Assembly: GCA_012490745.1 (NCBI GenBank)
Contig: GCA_012490745.1_3925.1
Strand: one strand, 5' to 3'
Source: a phage
DNA: 64,000 nucleotides
The notes below the pieces were generated by a model that was not told the DNA's origin, searched no databases, and saw only the letters and a program-made list of their open reading frames with translations. The translations under genes and the position numbers were made by a program. Numbering within the stretch: the stretch's first letter is position 1; every line of letters starts with the position of its first letter. Positions 2,892 to 58,145 of this stretch are shown here, one piece after another.

Positions 2892-3434
2892 ATGAAATGT
2901 TATCACGGAACTACTCAAGAAAATTTCCTCAACCTGATTAATAACGGTGATAAACCATCAGGCGCATGGAATTGTTCGGATATGGACGGCAATTTTTACG
3001 TGTATCCAGAAAATAAAATCTATGGCGACGATGATGAAGAGATAACATCGGAGGGCATTCAGCAAGCTCTAGGGAACGCCACTATTACGGCGGCCTTCCA
3101 GATGAAAACCCAAAATATTGTTATCTTAGAACTCGATATTCCAGATGATGAGCTAAATGATGATTATTCTTGTGATAATATGTCGAGTGTAGCAAGTTTT
3201 ACAGAGTACTTTGATGTAAACTGGATTAAAAAGGTCTATACAACAGAGTTTAACGCTATGTATTCGCCTTTTTGTCTTCCTTCACTGGATAACCCAAATA
3301 TGAACTATCTTGATGAGACATTAGAACTACTTGCTAAAAGTGTTCAACAGTCGGACAGTATTCAGGTTTTTTGTGACATCATGGATACACTGACAGGAAA
3401 CATCGCAGAAGAGGATTTAAAGAGCTTTTTCTAA
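2892..3434 (+). CDS. hypothetical early protein (180 aa)
   Basis: ORF behind cassette A. Confidence 0.55.
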   Translation: MKCYHGTTQENFLNLINNGDKPSGAWNCSDMDGNFYVYPENKIYGDDDEEITSEGIQQALGNATITAAFQMKTQNIVILELDIPDDELNDDYSCDNMSSVASFTEYFDVNWIKKVYTTEFNAMYSPFCLPSLDNPNMNYLDETLELLAKSVQQSDSIQVFCDIMDTLTGNIAEEDLKSFF

Positions 3435-5625: not shown

Positions 5626-7236
5626 GTCTATCGAATCCTTATACAATCCCTTTCCCTCACCTTTCCAGAATCTTATCAGACCTTAAAAGCAATAACTCTA
5701 TAGTCTACTCTATAACCTCTTATCAAATCAACTTAAATATAAGCCCATAACCCGAAAGGGAAGGGCAACCCCTTAAACGCTCTATAACGCCCTATAACAG
5801 CCTTATCAACCTAACTTAAGGGGTTGCATTAACTCACCCTAAAAAGCCCTTCCTAGAGCTTCCTAGAACCTTAAAAGAATCTTATAAGGGTGTAAGCTTT
5901 ATTATCTCGTTAGCTATCTTGTGAACTACTAAACAAGCCCCTTGATAGTAACTGAAAAGTATGTTATAGGGGCTATAAAGTTACTTCAAAGTTGCTTAAA
6001 AGTTACGTAAATGCTAGCCCCCTTAACATTTTCTTAACAATTTCTTAACAAACCCTACATAGTTATGCTTTTAAGGCACTTGTTAGCAACTTGTTAGCCC
6101 CTTGTTAAATCTCTGTCAAGACCACGTAAAAGCCTTGTAAGAACCTTTGACATAGTCTTTAAAGCCCCTGTAAAGCCCTATAAAGAGGTATCTGTACAGT
6201 TGGGGTGTAATTACTAGGAAGAGGCTTAAAAGAGCTTACAAGGGGCTATAGAGAGCTTTTAAGAGGGCTATTTAGAGAATCACTAAGAAAGAGAGGGAAC
6301 GATAAGAAAAGAGATAGTGACCATGTTAATAGCTTGTTAAAAAGATTAAACACTTGTTAGAAACTTGTTAATTATCTTAACAAAATAACTCTTAAAAATT
6401 AACTTGTTAGCTCTTGTTAGTCATCTGTTAAGACTCTGTAAAGACCATGTATCGTCTGTTAAGAAACTGTTAAGCCCTTGTTAGTTATGTTAAGAATCTG
6501 TTAAGACCTCTGAAGAGATGTTAAGAGATTGAGAGAGTTGTTAAGAGATTGTTAAGGATATTTTAAAATTCTGCAAAGTACTTGTAAGGGAGCTGTTAAG
6601 GGCTACCAAGCAGATATACATCTTCTACAGATATTTTTCAGTTCCTTCAAAGACCCTAAAAAATGACTTGATAGTCCTATTTTATAAAAATTTTAAAAAT
6701 CTGAATAATTACCTATACAGTCTTTCTAAAATACAGGTAATAACAGGCTTATAAGATACCTTGTTAGTACCGTGTTAGACCTTGTGAGATAAGGTCTGTA
6801 AAGATATTCCTGTTAAGTTTGTTAAAACAGTCTATATAGAGGCTTAGTAGCACCTAGTGAACACCTATAGAGAGTATCATAGCTGACATAATGGGTTACT
6901 GTTAAGTAACACAGATAACCTAGAGATTAAGAGGTGTATAGGAGCTTCTAAGAGAGTGTAGAGAGATGGTTAAGGTGATTGTATAGGTTGTTAAGAAGGC
7001 TTGTTAGAAGAGTGTTTAGAGGGCTATTTAGAAGGGCTATACAGAGGGCTATTAAGACCACTAGATAGTTACTAAGATACTATATAGTACTATATAACTA
7101 TATAGAGAGTAAGATTAAGAAGGTTGTTAAGAAGGGTAGATATTTTATTCACATATGATGGTGACCCAGAGGTTGGGACAACCGATAAAATTTTACTCAA
7201 TAAAAAGCCCCCGATTAAGGAGGCTCTTAAGATATT
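5626..7236. repeat. ORF-free region dense in short direct repeats (CTTGTTAG / CTGTTAAG / TGTTAAGA and GGGCTAT(T/A)(T/A)AGA families)
   Basis: No ORF of 60 aa or more on either strand in the track; dozens of 7-9 nt repeat copies, clustered at 6000-6600. Confidence 0.7.
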
Positions 7237-12405: not shown

Positions 12406-12870
12406 TTACTTTGGGTATACACTGTCAAGATAAATGTCAGCTTCCATTCTACGTCTGTTTTTCAGGCCGTTTGAAGTGACCTTCTGACCTTTGACTGTAA
12501 CCTTGTTCCACCACTGCATAGCTTCTGCACAACCTACCTTATTACCAGCGTTGTGGCGCTTGATAAATGTGGAATCCTGCATAGCTGTGATACCGATGTT
12601 GTATGTTTCACTTACAAGTGCATCAAACTCGTTCTGAGAAGTTGGAACCTTGATGGCTTTATTCACTGCTGCAACGAATTTTTCAACATCTGCAAGAAGA
12701 TACTGTTCAGCTTGTTCAGCAGTAATTTTCATACCCATCTTAACAGGCTTTCCGTCAATACGGATTGTCCCATACCCGATTGTTGGGATTCCGGCAGAGT
12801 CTTCGTAAGCCTCTAACTTCAGACCTTCGAAGAACTTAATAGCATCTAAACCTTTTCTTGAGAGTTGCAT
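12406..12870 (-). CDS. endolysin, T4-lysozyme-like GH24 muramidase (154 aa)
   Basis: Catalytic motif EGLKLEAYEDSAGIPTIGYG matches the E...D...T triad region of T4 lysozyme. Confidence 0.85.
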   Translation of the reverse strand: MQLSRKGLDAIKFFEGLKLEAYEDSAGIPTIGYGTIRIDGKPVKMGMKITAEQAEQYLLADVEKFVAAVNKAIKVPTSQNEFDALVSETYNIGITAMQDSTFIKRHNAGNKVGCAEAMQWWNKVTVKGQKVTSNGLKNRRRMEADIYLDSVYPK

Positions 12871-31211: not shown

Positions 31212-31785
31212 AAAAGGTCTAGTTAGAACCTTAGTGGATGTTATTGGTCACAGACTAGCTCGTGATAAGAATAATAGACCAAATGTAATTAGAGCTTACC
31301 CTTCTGATAACTCAAATGACAAAGGTTTAAAACCTGACCAGCCATTTATCACCGTATACTGTCAAGATGCTGCAACACCTTATGGTTGGGTTCTTGATAA
31401 GTTTGTTGAGGATGATGTAGTTTGCTACAGAATTGCTTTTCAGATTCCAGTGTTAATTACGGTGAATGGTAAAGGTGCTCACAGTATTATGCTTGAGCTT
31501 AAACAACGATTAGAGATGAGTTCAGTCAGAGATTTAATCCTTGAAGAAACAGGAGCTACAGTACTGGACACTGGAGCAATCCCAAATGATTACACTTATC
31601 TCAATACAGATTTCGAAAATTCTGCACCTCTTGTTGTAACTCTTGTAAAAAACTCAGTCCTGAAAGATGAACGTGGAAGTATTATTGAGCGTGTCATTGT
31701 TGATGGTGAGTTAGTTTATGAAGAAGGACAAGAGCCACCAGAATATACTATCCATCTAGATGTAGACTCCAAAGGGGTAAAATAA
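31186..31785 (+). CDS. hypothetical tail-completion protein (199 aa)
   Basis: ORF. Confidence 0.45.
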   Translation: MQLETAELEKGLVRTLVDVIGHRLARDKNNRPNVIRAYPSDNSNDKGLKPDQPFITVYCQDAATPYGWVLDKFVEDDVVCYRIAFQIPVLITVNGKGAHSIMLELKQRLEMSSVRDLILEETGATVLDTGAIPNDYTYLNTDFENSAPLVVTLVKNSVLKDERGSIIERVIVDGELVYEEGQEPPEYTIHLDVDSKGVK

Positions 31786-33138
31786 ATGTGGAATCCAATT
31801 GTTAATGTAGATATTACATTGAACACCGCAGGAACTACAAGAGAAGGTTTTGGTTTGCCACTATTCTTAGCTTCAACAGATAACTTTGAAGAAAGAGTCC
31901 GTGGTTACACTTCCTTAACTGAAGTTGCTGAAGATTTCGATGAAAACTCTGCTGCATATAAGGCTGCTAAACAACTTTGGAGTCAGACTCCTAAAGTAAC
32001 TCAGCTTTATATTGGTAGACGTGCTATGCAGTACACTGTATCAATTCCTGATGCCGTTACCAAAAGTACAGACTACTCAATTACTGTAGCTGCTGGCGGT
32101 GGAATTTCTCAACCATACCAGTACACAGCACAAGACTCAGACACTGCTGAGGTAGTGTTGCAACAGTTTAAAACACAGATTGAAGCTGACCCAACAATCA
32201 AAGATAAGGTTTCTGTGAATGTAACTGGTAGCAATGGCTCTGCCACAATGATTATTACCAAAGCTGGTGATAATGACTTTGTGAAAGTAACAACCACAGC
32301 ACAGACTGTATACATTGCAAGTACAACTGCCGATACAGCATCAACTGCTCTGGCAGCTATCGAAGCTTATTCTACTGACTGGTATTTCATTGCAGCAGAA
32401 GACAGAACTCAACAGTTTGTCTTAGCAATGGCTTCTGAGATTCAGGCTCGCAAGAAAATCTTCTTTACGGCTAACTCAGATGTAGCAGCACTGCAAGGCA
32501 CAGAATTAGCCAGTGCAAATGATGTTCCAGCACAGCTTGCTAAGAATATGTACACTCGTACAGTTTGCTTGTGGCATCACACAGCAGCAGAAGATTATCC
32601 AGAGATGGCATACATTGCTTATGGTGCTCCATATGACGCAGGTTCGATTGCTTGGGGTAATGCTCAGCTAACTGGTGTAGCAGCTTCTCTACAACCATCT
32701 AATCAGAGGCCTCTGACAAGTATTCAGAAGTCTGCTTTAGATGCACGTCACTGTAACTTTATTGACCTTGATGGTGGTGTTCCAGTGGTTCGTAGAGGGA
32801 TTACTTCTGGTGGGGAATGGATTGATATCATCCGTGGTGTTGACTGGTTAGAATCAGACCTGAAAACTTCTCTGAGAGACTTGCTAATTAACCAGAAGGG
32901 TGGTAAGATTACTTATGATGATACTGGTATTACTCGTATTCGTCAAGTCATTGAAACCTCTCTGCAAAGAGCAGTCAACAGAAACTTCCTGTCATCTTAC
33001 ACAGTTAATGTTCCTAAAGCCTCTCAAGTTGCTTTAGCAGACAAGAAAGCACGTATCCTGAAAGACGTTACCTTCGCAGGTATCTTAGCAGGGGCTATCT
33101 TGGATGTTGACTTGAAAGGTACAGTGGCTTACGAATAA
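31786..33138 (+). CDS. putative tail sheath protein (450 aa)
   Basis: Synteny: ~450-aa gene followed by ~150-aa gene, chaperones and tape measure; contractile-tail inference. Confidence 0.45.
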   Translation: MWNPIVNVDITLNTAGTTREGFGLPLFLASTDNFEERVRGYTSLTEVAEDFDENSAAYKAAKQLWSQTPKVTQLYIGRRAMQYTVSIPDAVTKSTDYSITVAAGGGISQPYQYTAQDSDTAEVVLQQFKTQIEADPTIKDKVSVNVTGSNGSATMIITKAGDNDFVKVTTTAQTVYIASTTADTASTALAAIEAYSTDWYFIAAEDRTQQFVLAMASEIQARKKIFFTANSDVAALQGTELASANDVPAQLAKNMYTRTVCLWHHTAAEDYPEMAYIAYGAPYDAGSIAWGNAQLTGVAASLQPSNQRPLTSIQKSALDARHCNFIDLDGGVPVVRRGITSGGEWIDIIRGVDWLESDLKTSLRDLLINQKGGKITYDDTGITRIRQVIETSLQRAVNRNFLSSYTVNVPKASQVALADKKARILKDVTFAGILAGAILDVDLKGTVAYE

Positions 33139-45951: not shown

Positions 45952-46030
45952 TCCCTTGTTGACTGATTGTTAAGATGGTGTTAATATTCTTTATGGGTAT
46001 TCTCACCATCTTGGCTGATGAGGTGATTAA

Positions 46031-46225
46031 ATGCCTACAATCCTAGCAATTCTTCTAAAAAATCTAGGTAGCTTCTTCTGGAAACTCATTTTATCCCTTC
46101 TAAGTGAATACATGATTGAGAAAGTGTTCTTTAATCTTGCAAGATACCTTGCGAGTAAAACAGACACACCTATTGATGATGAGTTCGTAGATAACTTAGA
46201 AAAAGCTTTTAAGGGGGAGAAATAA
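46031..46225 (+). CDS. small hydrophobic protein, possible holin-like (64 aa)
   Basis: N-terminal hydrophobic segment ILAILLKNLGSFFWKLILSLL; downstream of the fibre genes. Confidence 0.35.
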   Translation: MPTILAILLKNLGSFFWKLILSLLSEYMIEKVFFNLARYLASKTDTPIDDEFVDNLEKAFKGEK

Positions 46226-46597
46226 ATGAAGTGGCTAGAGGAAGCTTTTAAAAATAATATTGGTGCAATTGTAGTTGGTATTTTTAGTGTTATTGGGATG
46301 TATACCACGATGCAGGTTTCAAGTGGTAAACAAGAAGTGTCTGTCACAACAAAGTTACAGCAGCTAGATAATTATTCCAAAAGTAACTATTCAGCTATTC
46401 GTGATTTACAGTCTGACATGAGACTGATTCAGCTAGGGATGGAGAACCAGAAAGTTCAGTTAGAGAATGTTAAGGGTGAAAACGCAAAACTTACCAAAAC
46501 TCTTGATAAATTCTCTGACAGTGTGAACAATCTGGCTCAATCAGTATCAGCCCTCCAAGCTATTACTGAAAAGAACACAAAGAATACTGAAAAATAA
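46226..46597 (+). CDS. membrane-anchored coiled-coil protein, possible i-spanin-like (123 aa)
   Basis: N-terminal TM helix GAIVVGIFSVIGMYTT followed by a heptad-rich periplasmic-type domain. Confidence 0.4.
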   Translation: MKWLEEAFKNNIGAIVVGIFSVIGMYTTMQVSSGKQEVSVTTKLQQLDNYSKSNYSAIRDLQSDMRLIQLGMENQKVQLENVKGENAKLTKTLDKFSDSVNNLAQSVSALQAITEKNTKNTEK

Positions 46598-49733: not shown

Positions 49734-50117
49734 TCAAATACCTGTGCAGCTTCTGTTTTCTAAGAAATACTCAACACCATACATAGCTTTTTGCATCAAA
49801 TCTTCTTTAAACTGGATACGATGATTGAGCATAGCCTGTACATCAATATCATCAGGGTGCTTCTCTTTAATATTTGCAGATTGCAGGAAATACTCTGCAA
49901 GAACACGATACTGATAGTCAGTTACCTTATCAGTCATCTCTGTTAAAGACTCTTCAGAGATTGGTTTAAGTAGTTCACCTTTAGATAGGGCAACACCTTT
50001 AACAATCTGGCAAGTGTCTTCTGGAACACCTGATAAGTCCACATTTGGAAGTTCTGTTGCATTGACTGGTAAATTCATTGCCATAACCATTGCAGCAGCT
50101 AATAAAATCTTTTTCAT
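49734..50117 (-). CDS. secreted/periplasmic protein with signal peptide (127 aa)
   Basis: N-terminal MKKILLAAAMVMAMNLPVNA signal-peptide-like sequence. Confidence 0.5.
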   Translation of the reverse strand: MKKILLAAAMVMAMNLPVNATELPNVDLSGVPEDTCQIVKGVALSKGELLKPISEESLTEMTDKVTDYQYRVLAEYFLQSANIKEKHPDDIDVQAMLNHRIQFKEDLMQKAMYGVEYFLENRSCTGI

Positions 50118-51973: not shown

Positions 51974-53074
51974 TTATTCGTAATCTCGAATAACTAACCC
52001 AACAGGGAACTGTAAAGAACCCTTACGAGTCATCTTCTGGAACTGAACAGTTAAAGGTTTCCCGATAAACTCTTCAGGATGTTCAGCAAGATACTGTTTC
52101 TTCTCATGAGTAGTCTTCCATGAGACATCTACAAAGACGTTAGGAAGAGTCTCTACGACGAACTTACCATGACCACGTTTATCAGTCTTTACACCAGTTA
52201 CTTTAAACTCTTCAGTGTGCATCTTCTTGTGCTTAATCAAGAAGTATGAACGGTGACAACACTCATAGAATGAGTCTTCAGAGATTGAACGGTACATTGC
52301 ACCTTCAAACTTAGCCTCAACCCACTTATCATGAGCTTCATCAAATTCTTCCCAAGAGTTCACACGGATAGTCTGTACAGGAACCACTCTACAGGTATCA
52401 CCAAGCTCAACAATGGGTGAATTATCAATAACTTCACGACGCTCAGGCCAAGATTTTGAATTGTCACAGATATCATACCAGTAGAATTTAAGAAGGTGGC
52501 GGTCTGGATTGTCAGCATTCTTAATCATAGAGACAATATCTTCTAAGTCCCAACCATGAGCATAAATCTCACCATCAAAGTCTTCAACTTGTGGATGTAA
52601 TTTAAGCAACAAAAGCAAATCTGGAATTAGTTCTGCTGGAACGTTGTAAACAGTATTCTCACGAGAATAAGCCGTGAAGTTAACTAAATCAGCATCTCTT
52701 GAAATTCTACAACGGACACCATCAAGTTTTGGTTGAGCATCAGCAGGGAACTTCAGATACTTTGCATGACTAACCTTTGCAGCATCATGAGCAAGCTGTA
52801 CACCTACCTTCTCAGTATTCTGTGCAGATTCTTTTGTGTAAGCATAACCTTTACGGTCAACTTGCTTTTTATACTTAGCAGCAACTTCAAAGAGAGCTTG
52901 CTGTTCAGCATTACGCTCATTCTTTTTACCGATGTTTTTAGGTTCTGCTGTATACTCTTCAAACATCATCTTGCCATTTTCTTTACCATAGGTTGTAATA
53001 ACTTTGTCACCTACAGCGACACATGACCAGACGTTAAAAGAGCCATCTTTATTTTGTTTGTATAGAATTGTCAT
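51974..53074 (-). CDS. ATP-dependent DNA ligase (366 aa)
   Basis: Adenylation motif I KLDGVR (Lys-x-Asp-Gly), motif IV-like FEGAMYR, motif V-like FLIKHKK. Confidence 0.8.
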   Translation of the reverse strand: MTILYKQNKDGSFNVWSCVAVGDKVITTYGKENGKMMFEEYTAEPKNIGKKNERNAEQQALFEVAAKYKKQVDRKGYAYTKESAQNTEKVGVQLAHDAAKVSHAKYLKFPADAQPKLDGVRCRISRDADLVNFTAYSRENTVYNVPAELIPDLLLLLKLHPQVEDFDGEIYAHGWDLEDIVSMIKNADNPDRHLLKFYWYDICDNSKSWPERREVIDNSPIVELGDTCRVVPVQTIRVNSWEEFDEAHDKWVEAKFEGAMYRSISEDSFYECCHRSYFLIKHKKMHTEEFKVTGVKTDKRGHGKFVVETLPNVFVDVSWKTTHEKKQYLAEHPEEFIGKPLTVQFQKMTRKGSLQFPVGLVIRDYE

Positions 53075-54008: not shown

Positions 54009-54269
54009 TCATCCATCAATAACAGTAGTGTGTGATTGACCATTTTTGCCATATCTATAAGATGTTGTTGTTTGAGAGTTTGGGCATCTGACAACAACAA
54101 TATCCCTGCTTATAGCATCCCCATTGAGTTTGTAGATTTTGCAGTCTTGCATCTCTGGAGGGAGGCTGTAAGAGGCATCTTTGTTTTCATAAGATGGGTT
54201 ACAGCCAGCCAGAAAAATTACTACAAGTGCAACCATTGCTTTCACACAACTCTTAACCTTATTGTTCAC
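54009..54269 (-). CDS. putative lipoprotein (86 aa)
   Basis: Signal peptide with lipobox VIFLAGC (L-A-G-C). Confidence 0.6.
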   Translation of the reverse strand: MNNKVKSCVKAMVALVVIFLAGCNPSYENKDASYSLPPEMQDCKIYKLNGDAISRDIVVVRCPNSQTTTSYRYGKNGQSHTTVIDG

Positions 54270-54401
54270 GATAATCTACCTCTCTGTATGTTTTTAAATA
54301 GTGAGTGATGAGTTCTGGTAATTCACTACGTTTAACGTTTGAACGAAGAAGTGTCCAGTCAAAACCTTTACCAACCCTCCCCCAGAGACTGTACATTTTC
54401 T

Positions 54402-54635
54402 TCATAGCAACTCCAGAATATCAATACGTTCACCTTTGAGTGCTCCAGTACGGTCTTTTGCAATCTTCCCTTCAACAATAAGAATGTGTGCAGACCTTAA
54501 AGTGTCACTGTTAAAGGCTTTTACGAACTTGCTAGGCATCACTACAATACACATCTCCTGAATCAACTCTGGAGTATAGCAGTTGTCGTGAAGTTGCTGA
54601 ATAACGTCTGCAAGTGTCATTTTTGATGTCTCCAA
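54402..54635 (-). CDS. hypothetical protein (77 aa)
   Basis: ORF. Confidence 0.45.
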   Translation of the reverse strand: METSKMTLADVIQQLHDNCYTPELIQEMCIVVMPSKFVKAFNSDTLRSAHILIVEGKIAKDRTGALKGERIDILELL

Positions 54636-54877: not shown

Positions 54878-55405
54878 TCAACTTAGTTTTGCAAACTCTC
54901 CGTGGAGTTTCATAGCAGCTTCACAGTAAGCTTTATGGGCTTCTTCAGGTGTATCATAGTAGCCTAAGTACATCTTTTTACCTTTATAACTTATTTGTGC
55001 AACCCACCTACCAGACTTCTTCTTCAGGCTTACACCTTTATAACCTGATTTATTGGTGGATAGCTTGCTTTTATTCCAAGCGCTTTGGCAGTCATCTGCT
55101 TCTCTTAGGTTTACAACCCTGTTATCAAGGGAGTCTCCATTAACATGGTCAATGATACCTCTCGGCAACCTACCATACACGTACAGCCATGCGAGTCTGT
55201 GCGCTTTATGTGCTTTCTTATCAAAGTAGATGGTAACCTGCTTATGACCAGTTGAGTCAATCTGGATACTCCCCGCTATCTGTCCTGCGTACTGACTATT
55301 AAAGACCTTAACAGCCTTTGAGTCGCCCTCTCTACGAAGCCAAGTAAAGACCCCTGTTTCGGGGTCATAGTGTAGTAGTTCCTTTAAACGTTCTTGTGTA
55401 ATCAT
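54878..55405 (-). CDS. HNH homing endonuclease with C-terminal AP2-type DNA-binding domain (about 175 aa)
   Basis: HNH region HRLAWLYVYG...IDHVNGD..DNR..NLR; AP2-like YKGVS...GRWVAQISYKGKKMYLGYYDTPEEAHKAY; internal Met start avoids overlap with the polymerase stop. Confidence 0.75.
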   Translation of the reverse strand: MITQERLKELLHYDPETGVFTWLRREGDSKAVKVFNSQYAGQIAGSIQIDSTGHKQVTIYFDKKAHKAHRLAWLYVYGRLPRGIIDHVNGDSLDNRVVNLREADDCQSAWNKSKLSTNKSGYKGVSLKKKSGRWVAQISYKGKKMYLGYYDTPEEAHKAYCEAAMKLHGEFAKLS

Positions 55406-55415
55406 TTTGTCACCA

Positions 55416-58145
55416 TTAATGCACTTCCAACCACGATTTACCAACCTTACCAGTACCAGTTACCAGTGTTTCACTCTTTAGTCCTAAGTTCTTAGAGGCT
55501 TGCCCGTAATACCAATCAGTGACAGCCTTCACCTCTGCCGTCATACTTTCTGGACATTCCCAACTCGTCTCATCGTGATAGGAGCACAATAAACGAGCAC
55601 CTATAGCTGGTTTGCGACCGTTCAACTTCATCAAACCTTCGTCAATCATACGACGGCAAGCAAGGTTAATTGCCTCGTTCTGAATCTGACTTTCCGAACC
55701 CATGAGCAAATAATTCAATAACTTATGTGGAGATTTACACCACAACCAAGCTCCAGCAACCTTTACAAAACCCCCTTTAGAGATTGCAGCGGTCTTACCA
55801 AACACCTCTTCAAGTGCCTTTTTAGTCGCTTTGTAGTCAGCTTCCAAGTCATCTAACAGCTTCTTAATTTTAGGCAAACGTATAAAGTAAGTCTGTTTAG
55901 TCAGCGCACCTTCCTGAGTAGTCGCAGCTTTAATCGTCTTAGCAAACTTCTCATCACCTGCACCAAACAGCAGTGCATAGATACCATTCTTAGCTTTCTT
56001 ACGACCTTTGCTAATCTCATGAAGAAGATTCTCATCCTGAGTAGCTCGACAAGTCAAGATGTCCTGCTCATCATTCAAGCTAAAGTAAATACTGTTCAGT
56101 GTATGTGCATCAGTCCCTGAATAGACAACGTACAGGTCATTCTCAGAGTCATAGCGAAGGTACTTATCAATCTCTGGGTTGAGGTACTCATCAAAGTGTT
56201 TGCAGTAATAGCGTCCATCTTCTTGACGAATGAACTCAATTTCTTCTTTACCTTGCGTCACCGCTTTGGTGAAGTCTTTGTCACCCATAAAGTTACAAAG
56301 AAGAACTAGCTGGGCTGAGTTCATGTCTACAGAGACGACGTTAGTACCTTCTTCACAAATCCACACTGCCCTCATTGGTTCCCCATAGACAGCAGCACCA
56401 GACGGTACGTTTACAATACCATATTGTGTCATACGTCCAGTTGAAGTACCAAACACCATTGCACCAGCACTAAGGCGACCATCAGGACGAATCTGGTTCA
56501 ACCAACCTTTTTCATCATCCTTTGAGTTCTCAATAGTTCTACGTCGGTGCATCAAAGTATAGTATTTAGCAATCTTCTGTCCAAGCTCGCCTTCAATCGT
56601 ATCATAAGATGATTCAGTAAGTTTTGGTGAAGTACGGATTAAGCAAGGCTCAAGCAAATCTGTGTACTTCTTCACAGACCAGTTATGCTCAATGTACTGG
56701 ACACCTTCATGTTCAACATAACTCAAGCCACACCGTTCAACCATCTCCTGCCACTTAGGATGCTTTGTAATCATCTTTTTGTTGTCTTTGAAACGACAAA
56801 CTTTGACAGGGCGACCATCTGAGTCTTTCTTGTAGTTCCAGTCATCTGGAATCCAACCAACTGATTTCAAGTAGTCTTTAACAACTGCTACCTGAGTCAT
56901 ACGAGAAACTTCGAACTCAATTGGTGTATATGGTGCATCAATCAATCCTGTGTAGCGACTTGACTCAAGTTCAAAGTGGTTAACAACATGGCTGTTATAG
57001 TACTTCACAGTTTTAACAGTTTTTACTGGCTTCCAGTCTTTGCATTTCTTACCAATCTTTGCATTCAACTCGTTGCAAATTGCACGGGCATCCTTCATTG
57101 CTACAAAGCCTTCCTTGTACTCTTCACCAGTTACAGAGTTGGTTGGTGTATAGCAATTTCTCTTTTCAATGTTAAAAATCTTTGTAGTTGGCTTACCAAA
57201 TGGCTTGATTTCGTATGTCTGCATCTCACCGTTACGTACCTGCTGACGATACTTTGTTTTAGGGTACTTGGTAATTCTCTTCAGTCCATCTGCATGACCG
57301 AATGTTTCAACATACTCATTCCAAGCTTTTGCAAACTCTTCTCCAGTGACTTTACCTTTGGTCTTAATAGTTGGAGGTAGATGTGGTTCAACCTCTGAAG
57401 CAAGCTCATTAGTCAACTTGTCAAGTTCCTTTACATGGAACTCCATAAGCTCTTTATCAGCTTTCCAGCCATTGATAGCTTGTTGACTCATCCAGAAAGA
57501 TGTTTCTTTAGCTCGCATGTAGGTTTCATAAGTGTCTATGCCACACTTCTTAAGCTTGAGATATTCATTATCAAGTGCCCGTTTAGTTTTGGCGTTAATA
57601 CGGATATCTTCTACAACACGAGTGAAGATTTCTGCATTCCACACACCCCAATGTTCAATCTCTGGTTTACGAACACCGACACGAGCGCCCCATGCAGCCA
57701 AACCATGAGCACCTTTATAACCCTTTGGAGTTGGTCTATCCATCCACTGAACACGAGACTGGATAAGAGAATCCTGAAAGAAATTACTCCACGGTTTACA
57801 CTTTGGATTATCAAAGTTCCACAAATCAGGTGCAATGTGATTGAAAACCCACCAGTCATAACCGAGACCATTATGGATGCAAAGGCGTTTTGCCTTTAAC
57901 GCAAACTCAATACCTTCACGTAAGCCACCCTTAATGTACTTGGTATACTTGTGACCGAGGATAGGCTCATCTGTAAAGACCCATACAGGTGGCTCTTCAT
58001 CGTCAGATTTATAGTCTGCGAAAGCCATTACGTGCACTTTAGTGAACTCAAGGAGTAAACCATCAGTTTCTGTATCACCAACTAAATGTAAGTTTTTAAA
58101 ATCTATGTTTTCCATTTTTACTCCCTCTAAAATCATTAACCTCAT
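55416..58145 (-). CDS. DNA polymerase, family A, with 3'-5' exonuclease domain (909 aa)
   Basis: Exo I VGDTETDGL; Pol A motif A-like SVDMNSAQL, motif B K..KNGIYALLFG, motif C YHDE. Confidence 0.9.
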   Translation of the reverse strand: MRLMILEGVKMENIDFKNLHLVGDTETDGLLLEFTKVHVMAFADYKSDDEEPPVWVFTDEPILGHKYTKYIKGGLREGIEFALKAKRLCIHNGLGYDWWVFNHIAPDLWNFDNPKCKPWSNFFQDSLIQSRVQWMDRPTPKGYKGAHGLAAWGARVGVRKPEIEHWGVWNAEIFTRVVEDIRINAKTKRALDNEYLKLKKCGIDTYETYMRAKETSFWMSQQAINGWKADKELMEFHVKELDKLTNELASEVEPHLPPTIKTKGKVTGEEFAKAWNEYVETFGHADGLKRITKYPKTKYRQQVRNGEMQTYEIKPFGKPTTKIFNIEKRNCYTPTNSVTGEEYKEGFVAMKDARAICNELNAKIGKKCKDWKPVKTVKTVKYYNSHVVNHFELESSRYTGLIDAPYTPIEFEVSRMTQVAVVKDYLKSVGWIPDDWNYKKDSDGRPVKVCRFKDNKKMITKHPKWQEMVERCGLSYVEHEGVQYIEHNWSVKKYTDLLEPCLIRTSPKLTESSYDTIEGELGQKIAKYYTLMHRRRTIENSKDDEKGWLNQIRPDGRLSAGAMVFGTSTGRMTQYGIVNVPSGAAVYGEPMRAVWICEEGTNVVSVDMNSAQLVLLCNFMGDKDFTKAVTQGKEEIEFIRQEDGRYYCKHFDEYLNPEIDKYLRYDSENDLYVVYSGTDAHTLNSIYFSLNDEQDILTCRATQDENLLHEISKGRKKAKNGIYALLFGAGDEKFAKTIKAATTQEGALTKQTYFIRLPKIKKLLDDLEADYKATKKALEEVFGKTAAISKGGFVKVAGAWLWCKSPHKLLNYLLMGSESQIQNEAINLACRRMIDEGLMKLNGRKPAIGARLLCSYHDETSWECPESMTAEVKAVTDWYYGQASKNLGLKSETLVTGTGKVGKSWLEVH

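Follow-up and report, generated by a model that had tools for sequence, protein, structure and literature searches.

A predicted lipoprotein from the replication block of a Felix O1-like phage, its phrog_902/DUF4884 family, and its relation to the Llp-type exclusion lipoproteins

Small phage lipoproteins are the best-understood means by which virulent phages shut out followers, as exemplified by the pairs Llp-FhuA, Cor-FhuA, and Rtp45-LptDE. The known exclusion lipoproteins of this kind all have genes beside the one for the receptor-binding protein (RBP) and are matched to a protein receptor. The stretch of phage DNA analysed here (64 kb in its entirety, and referred to as the window) contains on its minus strand, at 54009-54269, an open reading frame for an 86-aa product that had been read from the sequence alone as a lipoprotein with a possible Llp-like function, the blocking of the phage's own receptor. 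The question raised by this locus is whether a lipoprotein gene situated among replication genes encodes an exclusion protein and, if so, whether that protein works in the manner of Llp. The source of the window is a Felixounavirus (Ounavirinae), a Felix O1-like myovirus, and Felix O1-like phages are widely used in the biocontrol of Salmonella and E. coli.

The DNA around the gene is 89-96% identical to that of numerous Felix O1-like myoviruses that infect E. coli, Salmonella, and Shigella. Felix O1 itself shows 93% DNA identity across the local 1-kb block, and its ORF213 is the orthologue of the 86-aa protein, with 95% identity in an alignment that begins at residue 1. According to the ORF list and the sequence, the coding region extends from a GTG at 54269 to the stop codon at 54009-54011 and translates as MNNKVKSCVKAMVALVVIFLAGC followed directly by NPSYENKDASYSLPPEMQDCKIYKLNGDAISRDIVVVRCPNSQTTTSYRYGKNGQSHTTVIDG. 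A Shine-Dalgarno-like AGAGGT (54278-54283, minus strand) is located 8 nt before this GTG, within the 3' end of the upstream ORF, and the Felixounavirus members of the orthologue alignment retain it as AGAGAGGT or AGAGAAGT. A DNA alignment of nine orthologues revealed an alternative in-frame GTG (54243-54245, minus strand) that would generate a 78-aa precursor. This second GTG is the positional counterpart of the ATG start ('MWK...') of most relatives, which has AGGAG ahead of the codon; in the subgroup containing the window phage, ST11, and Ro111lw, GTG replaces the ATG after a 3-nt deletion. Because all of the starts are in frame, each of them would give the same mature protein after cleavage by signal peptidase II. 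The median pairwise dN/dS is 0.09 (25 informative pairs from 8 orthologues), and variable sites are distributed 30/22/61 over the three codon positions. The low dN/dS and the third-position variation demonstrate that the ORF is coding on the minus strand. A 90-aa ORF on the opposite strand overlaps the lipoprotein ORF and is spurious, since the coding signal sits on the lipoprotein strand.

The export signal was evaluated with the PROSITE PS51257 rule, which specifies a positively charged n-region, a hydrophobic core, and a lipobox of the form [LVI][ASTVI][GAS]C with the cysteine at position 15-35. In the translation, a signal peptide is predicted over residues 1-22 (54204-54269, minus strand), with the n-region MNNKVKSCVKA, containing three lysines, and the h-region MVALVVIFL. 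It leads into the lipobox L20-A21-G22-C23 (54201-54212, minus strand), which has canonical variants throughout the family and in which Cys23 is the predicted lipid-modified residue 1 of the mature protein. The rule is passed from the GTG at 54269 (Cys at 23) and from the GTG at 54245 (Cys at 15) and is failed from an internal ATG at 54236. Among the 822 candidate starts of the 64-kb window (ORFs of at least 60 aa) only two pass, both within the lipoprotein ORF, which is also the sole match in a stricter lipobox scan of the window. Since this is the only ORF in the window to pass, the lipobox is not a chance match. Fifty-seven of 61 family members likewise pass PS51257, and the lipobox cysteine is invariant in all 61. 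The signal peptide and L-A-G-C lipobox originally proposed for the 86-aa product are thus well founded, and two further conserved cysteines fit a periplasmic disulfide. By these sequence rules, the product of 54009-54269 is a predicted bacterial-type lipoprotein, a substrate of Lgt and LspA.

In E. coli, the residue at position +2 after the lipidated cysteine decides between the outer and the inner membrane (the Lol rule), and this applies to enterobacteria. The +2 residue of the window protein is Asn, which predicts sorting to the outer membrane. Members from E. coli jumbo phages (P0012-P0015, L002, and L007) and from CR8 have Asp followed by Ala beginning at this position, which predicts retention in the inner membrane. 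The predicted membrane of residence therefore differs inside one family and one host species. Because the residue is Asn in one form and Asp-Ala in the other, the target should be reachable from either membrane if both forms work.

The protein matches phrog_902 with an E value of 2e-18 over its full length and of 4e-11 when the mature domain is used alone. The mature domains of eight of eight diverse members match phrog_902 only, and this is a family of 'unknown function'. Homologues were detected by tblastn in 602 phage records; profile searches recovered 290 proteins in a 90%-clustered collection and 1,260 representatives at 50% clustering, 718 of these at E ≤ 1e-10. Throughout the 50% clusters the members are 70-150 aa in length. 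They range from Felixounavirus and Mooglevirus to the jumbo Asteriusvirus and Eneladusvirus, Certrevirus CR8 (Vequintavirinae), and Acinetobacter Saclayvirus, with further homologues in Vibrio Demerecviridae (T5-like phages including JSF10 and a large group of Vibrio crassostreae phages) and in one Vibrio Schitoviridae (N4-like) phage. The hosts of phages with the conserved domain are Enterobacteria, Vibrio, Acinetobacter, and Aeromonas. A precomputed PF16225 (DUF4884) tag is present on nearly all of the homologues (P0001-P0159), and the DUF4884 name is the one used by NCBI. PF16225 was absent from the results of an hmmscan of the 61 members against one copy of Pfam-A at E ≤ 10; the model is probably missing from that copy or different in it. 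Searches of the protein against Pfam-A, NCBIfam, and PDB sequences returned sub-threshold noise only, and the matches to Zn_ribbon_InsA, MIB_HERC2, TrbK (E 0.03), and a ribosomal protein were discarded as such. No functional study was found in the literature on PF16225/DUF4884 or on a Felix O1 lipoprotein or superinfection exclusion. The window gene is the orthologue of a long-deposited 'hypothetical protein' from a catalogued DUF family, represented in more than 200 deposited genomes, and on its own it is an ordinary 'hypothetical lipoprotein' of modest interest. In an environmental large phage (L022, at 6001-6297 and 6294-6620, and also L023; JGI 3300047388, a 193-kb contig), two family members follow one another, of which the second is the more diverged (E 2e-8); here the lipoprotein gene has been duplicated locally.

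In the mature protein, a tether of residues 24-35 (NPSYENKDASYS; 54165-54200, minus strand) links the lipid anchor to the folded domain; it differs among family members in both sequence and length and is modelled with low pLDDT. The conserved folded domain, residues 36-86 (54012-54164, minus strand), is delineated by the invariant and near-invariant alignment columns. In the 61-sequence alignment the lipid-bearing cysteine, Cys43, Cys62, Pro63, and Gly74 are invariant, and Pro37, Asn64, and Lys75 are nearly so. The folded domain of the window protein contains the motifs L-P-x-x-[LM]-x-D-C-K-I-Y, V-V-R-C-P-N-S-x-T, and G-K, such that the entire family signature (L-P-x-x-L-x-D-C-x-[IV]-Y ... R-C-P-N-S ... 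G-K, with two cysteines) is present. One half of the conserved cysteine pair is Cys43 (codon 54141-54143, minus strand), invariant in 61 of 61 members and also in a 143-sequence alignment. The other half is Cys62 of the R-C-P-N-S motif (codon 54084-54086, minus strand), found in all 61 members and in at least 90% of the 143 sequences. A Cys43-Cys62 disulfide probably clamps a small β-meander domain. In both AlphaFold2 models, which are of low confidence (pLDDT 61 and 66), a short N-proximal strand leads into an antiparallel β-meander of four strands, and in PDB fold searches the models match generic β-sheets only. Because the models are of low confidence and their matches are generic, the fold gives no basis for proposing a binding partner. 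In some members (such as P0046, P0053, P0067, and P0068) two additional cysteines flank the G-K turn (x-C-G-K-x-C); their placement suggests that another disulfide would clamp the G-K hairpin.

The minus-strand block around the gene consists, in order, of a DNA polymerase gene (55416-58145), an HNH homing endonuclease gene, five small ORFs, and an ATP-dependent DNA ligase gene (51974-53074). The lipoprotein gene lies between the polymerase and ligase genes and is co-oriented with both, in agreement with its earlier assignment to a replication block. Its immediate neighbours encode soluble proteins of 48 and 68 aa. The upstream 48-aa ORF (54259-54405, minus strand; phrog_2381, no TM segment) overlaps the lipoprotein start by 11 nt. 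It was not found beside family members of other lineages and is regarded as context, not as a demonstrated partner. In one 81.9-kb contig (P0008) the N-terminus of this ORF (MKKMYSLWG...) continues in frame into the lipoprotein to give an 89-aa protein, a fusion that apparently arose by deletion of most of the upstream ORF. The HNH-type homing endonuclease (phrog_99; 54878-55444, minus strand), between the polymerase and the cluster of small ORFs, is patchy: some relatives have it and others, such as Ro111lw, do not, which explains part of the coverage gaps in genome comparisons. A 127-aa ORF at 49734-50117 (minus strand; phrog_4332) has a cleavable-looking Sec signal peptide (MKKILLAAAMVMAMNLPVNA followed by TELP) and is a second exported protein of the same minus-strand block.

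In Meda and SLAM_phiST56, the lipoprotein gene is cleanly deleted together with the upstream 48-aa ORF; SLAM_phiST56 also lacks the 69-aa ORF, and the other flanking genes are retained in both phages. A copy at 60% identity or above is present in at least 198 records, as compared with about 260 that contain the surrounding block. Because certain relatives have lost the gene by clean deletion and fewer records contain a copy of it than contain the block, it is an accessory gene. It is dispensable yet under strong purifying selection where present. Across 31 loci of many lineages the lipoprotein gene itself is the only one to be widely shared, and the next commonest neighbour family occurs in 4 loci; a nine-locus set likewise gave no conserved neighbour. 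Annotated neighbours in other lineages are early, replication, or nucleotide-metabolism genes. A scan for promoters and terminators was uninformative (26 promoter-like sites versus 18 expected).

We tentatively favour a reading in which the lipoprotein modifies the envelope from the periplasmic side and, through a conserved partner, protects the infected cell from further infection. By the sequence rules described above, the precursor would be exported by Sec, lipidated on Cys23 by Lgt, cut by signal peptidase II, and N-acylated. Lol would then sort the mature protein, by virtue of its +2 Asn, to the inner leaflet of the outer membrane, from which a protein of approximately 7 kDa would hang into the periplasm on a 12-residue tether. 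Production would occur in the early or middle lytic phase, a timing suggested by gene position only, the gene being co-oriented between the polymerase and ligase genes and away from tail and lysis genes. Working alone and from the periplasm, the lipoprotein would target a conserved partner exposed in the envelope, which may be a host envelope machine or a component ejected into the periplasm by incoming phages, and the outcome would be that the infected cell and its debris become closed to further infection. In function this would amount to exclusion, although not by Llp/Cor-style jamming of the phage's own protein receptor; superinfection exclusion by such a non-Llp route is possible. There is precedent in a contractile phage for exclusion after adsorption, since Imm of T4 binds the tape measure protein. 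T4 Spackle, T4 Imm, and Ltp of Streptococcus phage TP-J34, which is itself a lipoprotein, are all early-expressed, envelope-located proteins that exclude via ejected tail components and not via the receptor, and in these respects they resemble the window protein as envisaged. The resemblance does not extend to sequence or fold, in which no similarity to the window lipoprotein was detected; Spackle, moreover, is soluble, and Imm is an inner-membrane helical protein.

The main competing explanation is a periplasmic accessory function unrelated to exclusion, such as stabilising or remodelling of the envelope, control of lysis timing, inhibition of a host periplasmic enzyme or envelope-stress pathway, or the countering of an envelope-associated defence. 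The domain is kept across phages of four host groups whose receptors differ. This conservation suggests that the partner is a conserved one on the side of the host, and it is equally compatible with exclusion and with a role unrelated to it. The gene stands alone among early and metabolic genes and is dispensable, and the variation between Asn and Asp at +2 suggests a soluble or periplasm-spanning target. However, no similarity to a known inhibitor or enzyme family was found in Pfam, NCBIfam, the PADLOC-independent PHROG categories, PDB sequences, or PDB folds, and nothing specific favours any single one of the roles listed. We consider a function of this kind possible, on the unlikely side.

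To return to the favoured reading of periplasm-side protection, a broader form of it would add phrog_902/DUF4884 as a fourth class, independent of the RBP, to the phage lipoproteins for exclusion or envelope takeover: one small periplasmic lipoprotein, spread over at least seven virulent lineages and directed at one conserved envelope machine of Gammaproteobacteria (e.g., LptDE, BAM, or Tol-Pal) or at a conserved periplasmic step of genome delivery. We regard this extended proposal as speculative and rather unlikely as it stands; if true, it would imply a broad, receptor-independent protection of the infected cell. The family is much larger than the known exclusion lipoproteins (more than 1,200 clusters) and has the same physical format, with no RBP linkage, and it is present even in phages that depend on LPS. 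If its members exclude superinfection, they would do so via a conserved target, which would be useful in the design of phage cocktails; if their role is other than exclusion, the family would mark an unexplored periplasmic function in host takeover.

In exclusion of the Llp, Cor, and Rtp45 type, to which the sequence-only reading points, the lipoprotein would attach from the periplasmic side to the outer-membrane protein that serves its own phage as receptor and would distort the surface loops of that receptor, leaving the RBP unable to dock. The window protein does share with T5 Llp the features of a small (approximately 6-7 kDa mature) periplasm-facing lipoprotein of a virulent phage with one internal cysteine pair, and the three structurally characterised exclusion lipoproteins have in common with it a ~6-7 kDa, periplasmic, disulfide-bonded lipoprotein format. 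Cor (phi80, HK022, N15, and T1-like phages; exclusion at FhuA) is also a small phage lipoprotein. Relatedness was evaluated with and without the signal peptides. The family profile aligned to T5 Llp with a probability of 92% in hhalign, a signal-peptide artefact that was lost in the mature-only tests: without signal peptides the values were 2% for Llp and 0.2% for Cor, and the scores equalled those of shuffled sequences. Weak matches to the Cor/Llp PHROG, obtained with 20 of 61 full-length members, are likewise derived from the signal peptide, and the mature family domains gave no phrog_1119 match in any of eight cases. As positive controls, mature Llp and HK022 Cor matched phrog_1119 only, at 2e-10 and 4e-26. 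The label 'Cor superinfection exclusion protein' on one jumbo-phage homologue was rejected because it traces to a phrog_1119 match dominated by the signal peptide (E 9e-4, residues 1-49).

The arrangement of the cysteines also differs. In T5 Llp, a Cys11-Cys58 disulfide ties both termini together, and in Cor the pair consists of an N-proximal and a C-terminal cysteine, whereas the conserved pair of the window protein is internal to the domain, its two cysteines being 19 residues apart (mature positions 21 and 40), and a C-terminal cysteine is absent. Negative fold searches carry little weight here, because AF2 mispredicts even Llp. Taken together, the analogy with Llp, as judged from sequence comparison, is valid for the physical format only and not for family membership.

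Gene context and receptor use bear on the same question. The genes for Llp, Cor, and Rtp45 adjoin that of the RBP (T5 llp is next to oad), and Cor is found beside tail or RBP genes. By contrast, the lipoprotein gene does not adjoin an RBP gene in any of the 31 loci, no tail gene was seen beside it in the annotated loci of the family, and in the window the tail fibres are encoded at approximately 42.3-45.9 kb, away from the lipoprotein gene. T5 has a protein receptor, whereas Felixounaviruses have been reported to use LPS and to need an intact LPS core, and no protein receptor is known. Rtp45/SE_Oeko is similarly RBP-linked and belongs to small siphophages (Drexlerviridae) with a protein receptor; it is set apart here by description and not by sequence. 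The full nature of the Felix O1 receptor has been described as still elusive, and a protein co-receptor such as LptD is conceivable; the target of Rtp45 is LptDE, part of the LPS export machine, which provides a precedent. The mixed +2 residues within the family mildly argue against strict docking of the Llp type, which would take place on the periplasmic face of an outer-membrane barrel.

Comparison of the window phage with JohannRWettstein yields 98-99% identity for core proteins, 60-74% for tail fibres, and 83% for the lipoprotein. The tail fibres thus differ by 26-40% as opposed to 17% for the lipoprotein, whose dN/dS is as low as reported above; this is not the pattern of a pair matched through a receptor. 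The same domain is moreover present in lineages with unrelated receptors. A T1-like Escherichia phage, Henu8 (L046), encodes three lipoproteins: gp6 (3121-3381), gp45 (31565-31792), and gp61 (45954-46340). Henu8 gp6 is labelled DUF4884, contains the signature C-x-x-Y ... C-N-x-x-T-x-S-T-Y-R-x-G-K-N, and scores 15-21 bits against the family HMM, which makes it a predicted distant relative of the family. The same phage has a separate Cor gene beside the RBP gene and a separate unimolecular spanin, and the trio suggests three non-redundant lipoprotein roles; the presence of the gp6 relative in addition to a Cor argues against Cor-like action by the family. No DUF4884 gene was found in pSf-1, a close relative of Henu8, and the distant gp6 was the sole relative of the family to be found among T1-like phages. 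With mature domains dissimilar to Llp and Cor, no RBP adjacency, an LPS-dependent genus, and a domain common to phages of unrelated receptors, the earlier suggestion that the protein blocks the phage's own receptor as Llp does finds no support in these comparisons, and we consider such a mechanism improbable.

A lysis function, as an outer-membrane spanin subunit (Rz1-like) or an accessory of the spanin complex, is very improbable. The window protein does have a weak match to an 'Rz-like spanin' PHROG (E 0.048), as do 9 of 61 members at E < 0.01, and one homologue is annotated 'putative spanin', but the matches to spanin PHROGs are gone when mature domains are used; that annotation was rejected as a signal-peptide artefact against which gene context also speaks. 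The o-spanins (lambda Rz1 type) resemble the window protein in being outer-membrane lipoproteins from phages of Gram-negative hosts. They are encoded with, or embedded in, the i-spanin gene in lysis cassettes and are proline-rich, and for the window lipoprotein the i-spanin linkage, the lysis cassette, and the proline-richness are all absent: its mature domain has 4 prolines in 64 aa, its gene is in the replication block, and no gene for a membrane-anchored partner is adjacent or embedded, either here or in the 31 loci. The genus, furthermore, has its own overlapping i-spanin/o-spanin pair near pnk and rIIB, approximately 33 kb from the lipoprotein orthologue in JohannRWettstein, and Henu8 encodes its spanin separately from its DUF4884 relative. 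The genus pair found no match within the window, and the endolysin gene (12409-12870, minus strand) is more than 40 kb from the lipoprotein gene; with the endolysin this distant and the spanin pair unmatched in the window, lysis genes in the genus are scattered and not organised as a cassette.

The remaining explanation is that the ORF arose by chance or is a decaying pseudogene, its lipobox being fortuitous. It could appeal to the small size, the non-ATG start, and the overlapping opposite-strand ORF but is extremely improbable in view of the low dN/dS with third-position variation, the hundreds of homologues in which Cys, Pro, and Gly positions are invariant, and the failure of every other ORF among the 822 starts to pass the lipoprotein rule.

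Felix O1-like DNA that includes the lipoprotein block was also found in MG065664.1 (Campylobacter phage A132) and GU169904.1 (Staphylococcus phage SA1), and the host labels or the assemblies of these two records look doubtful.
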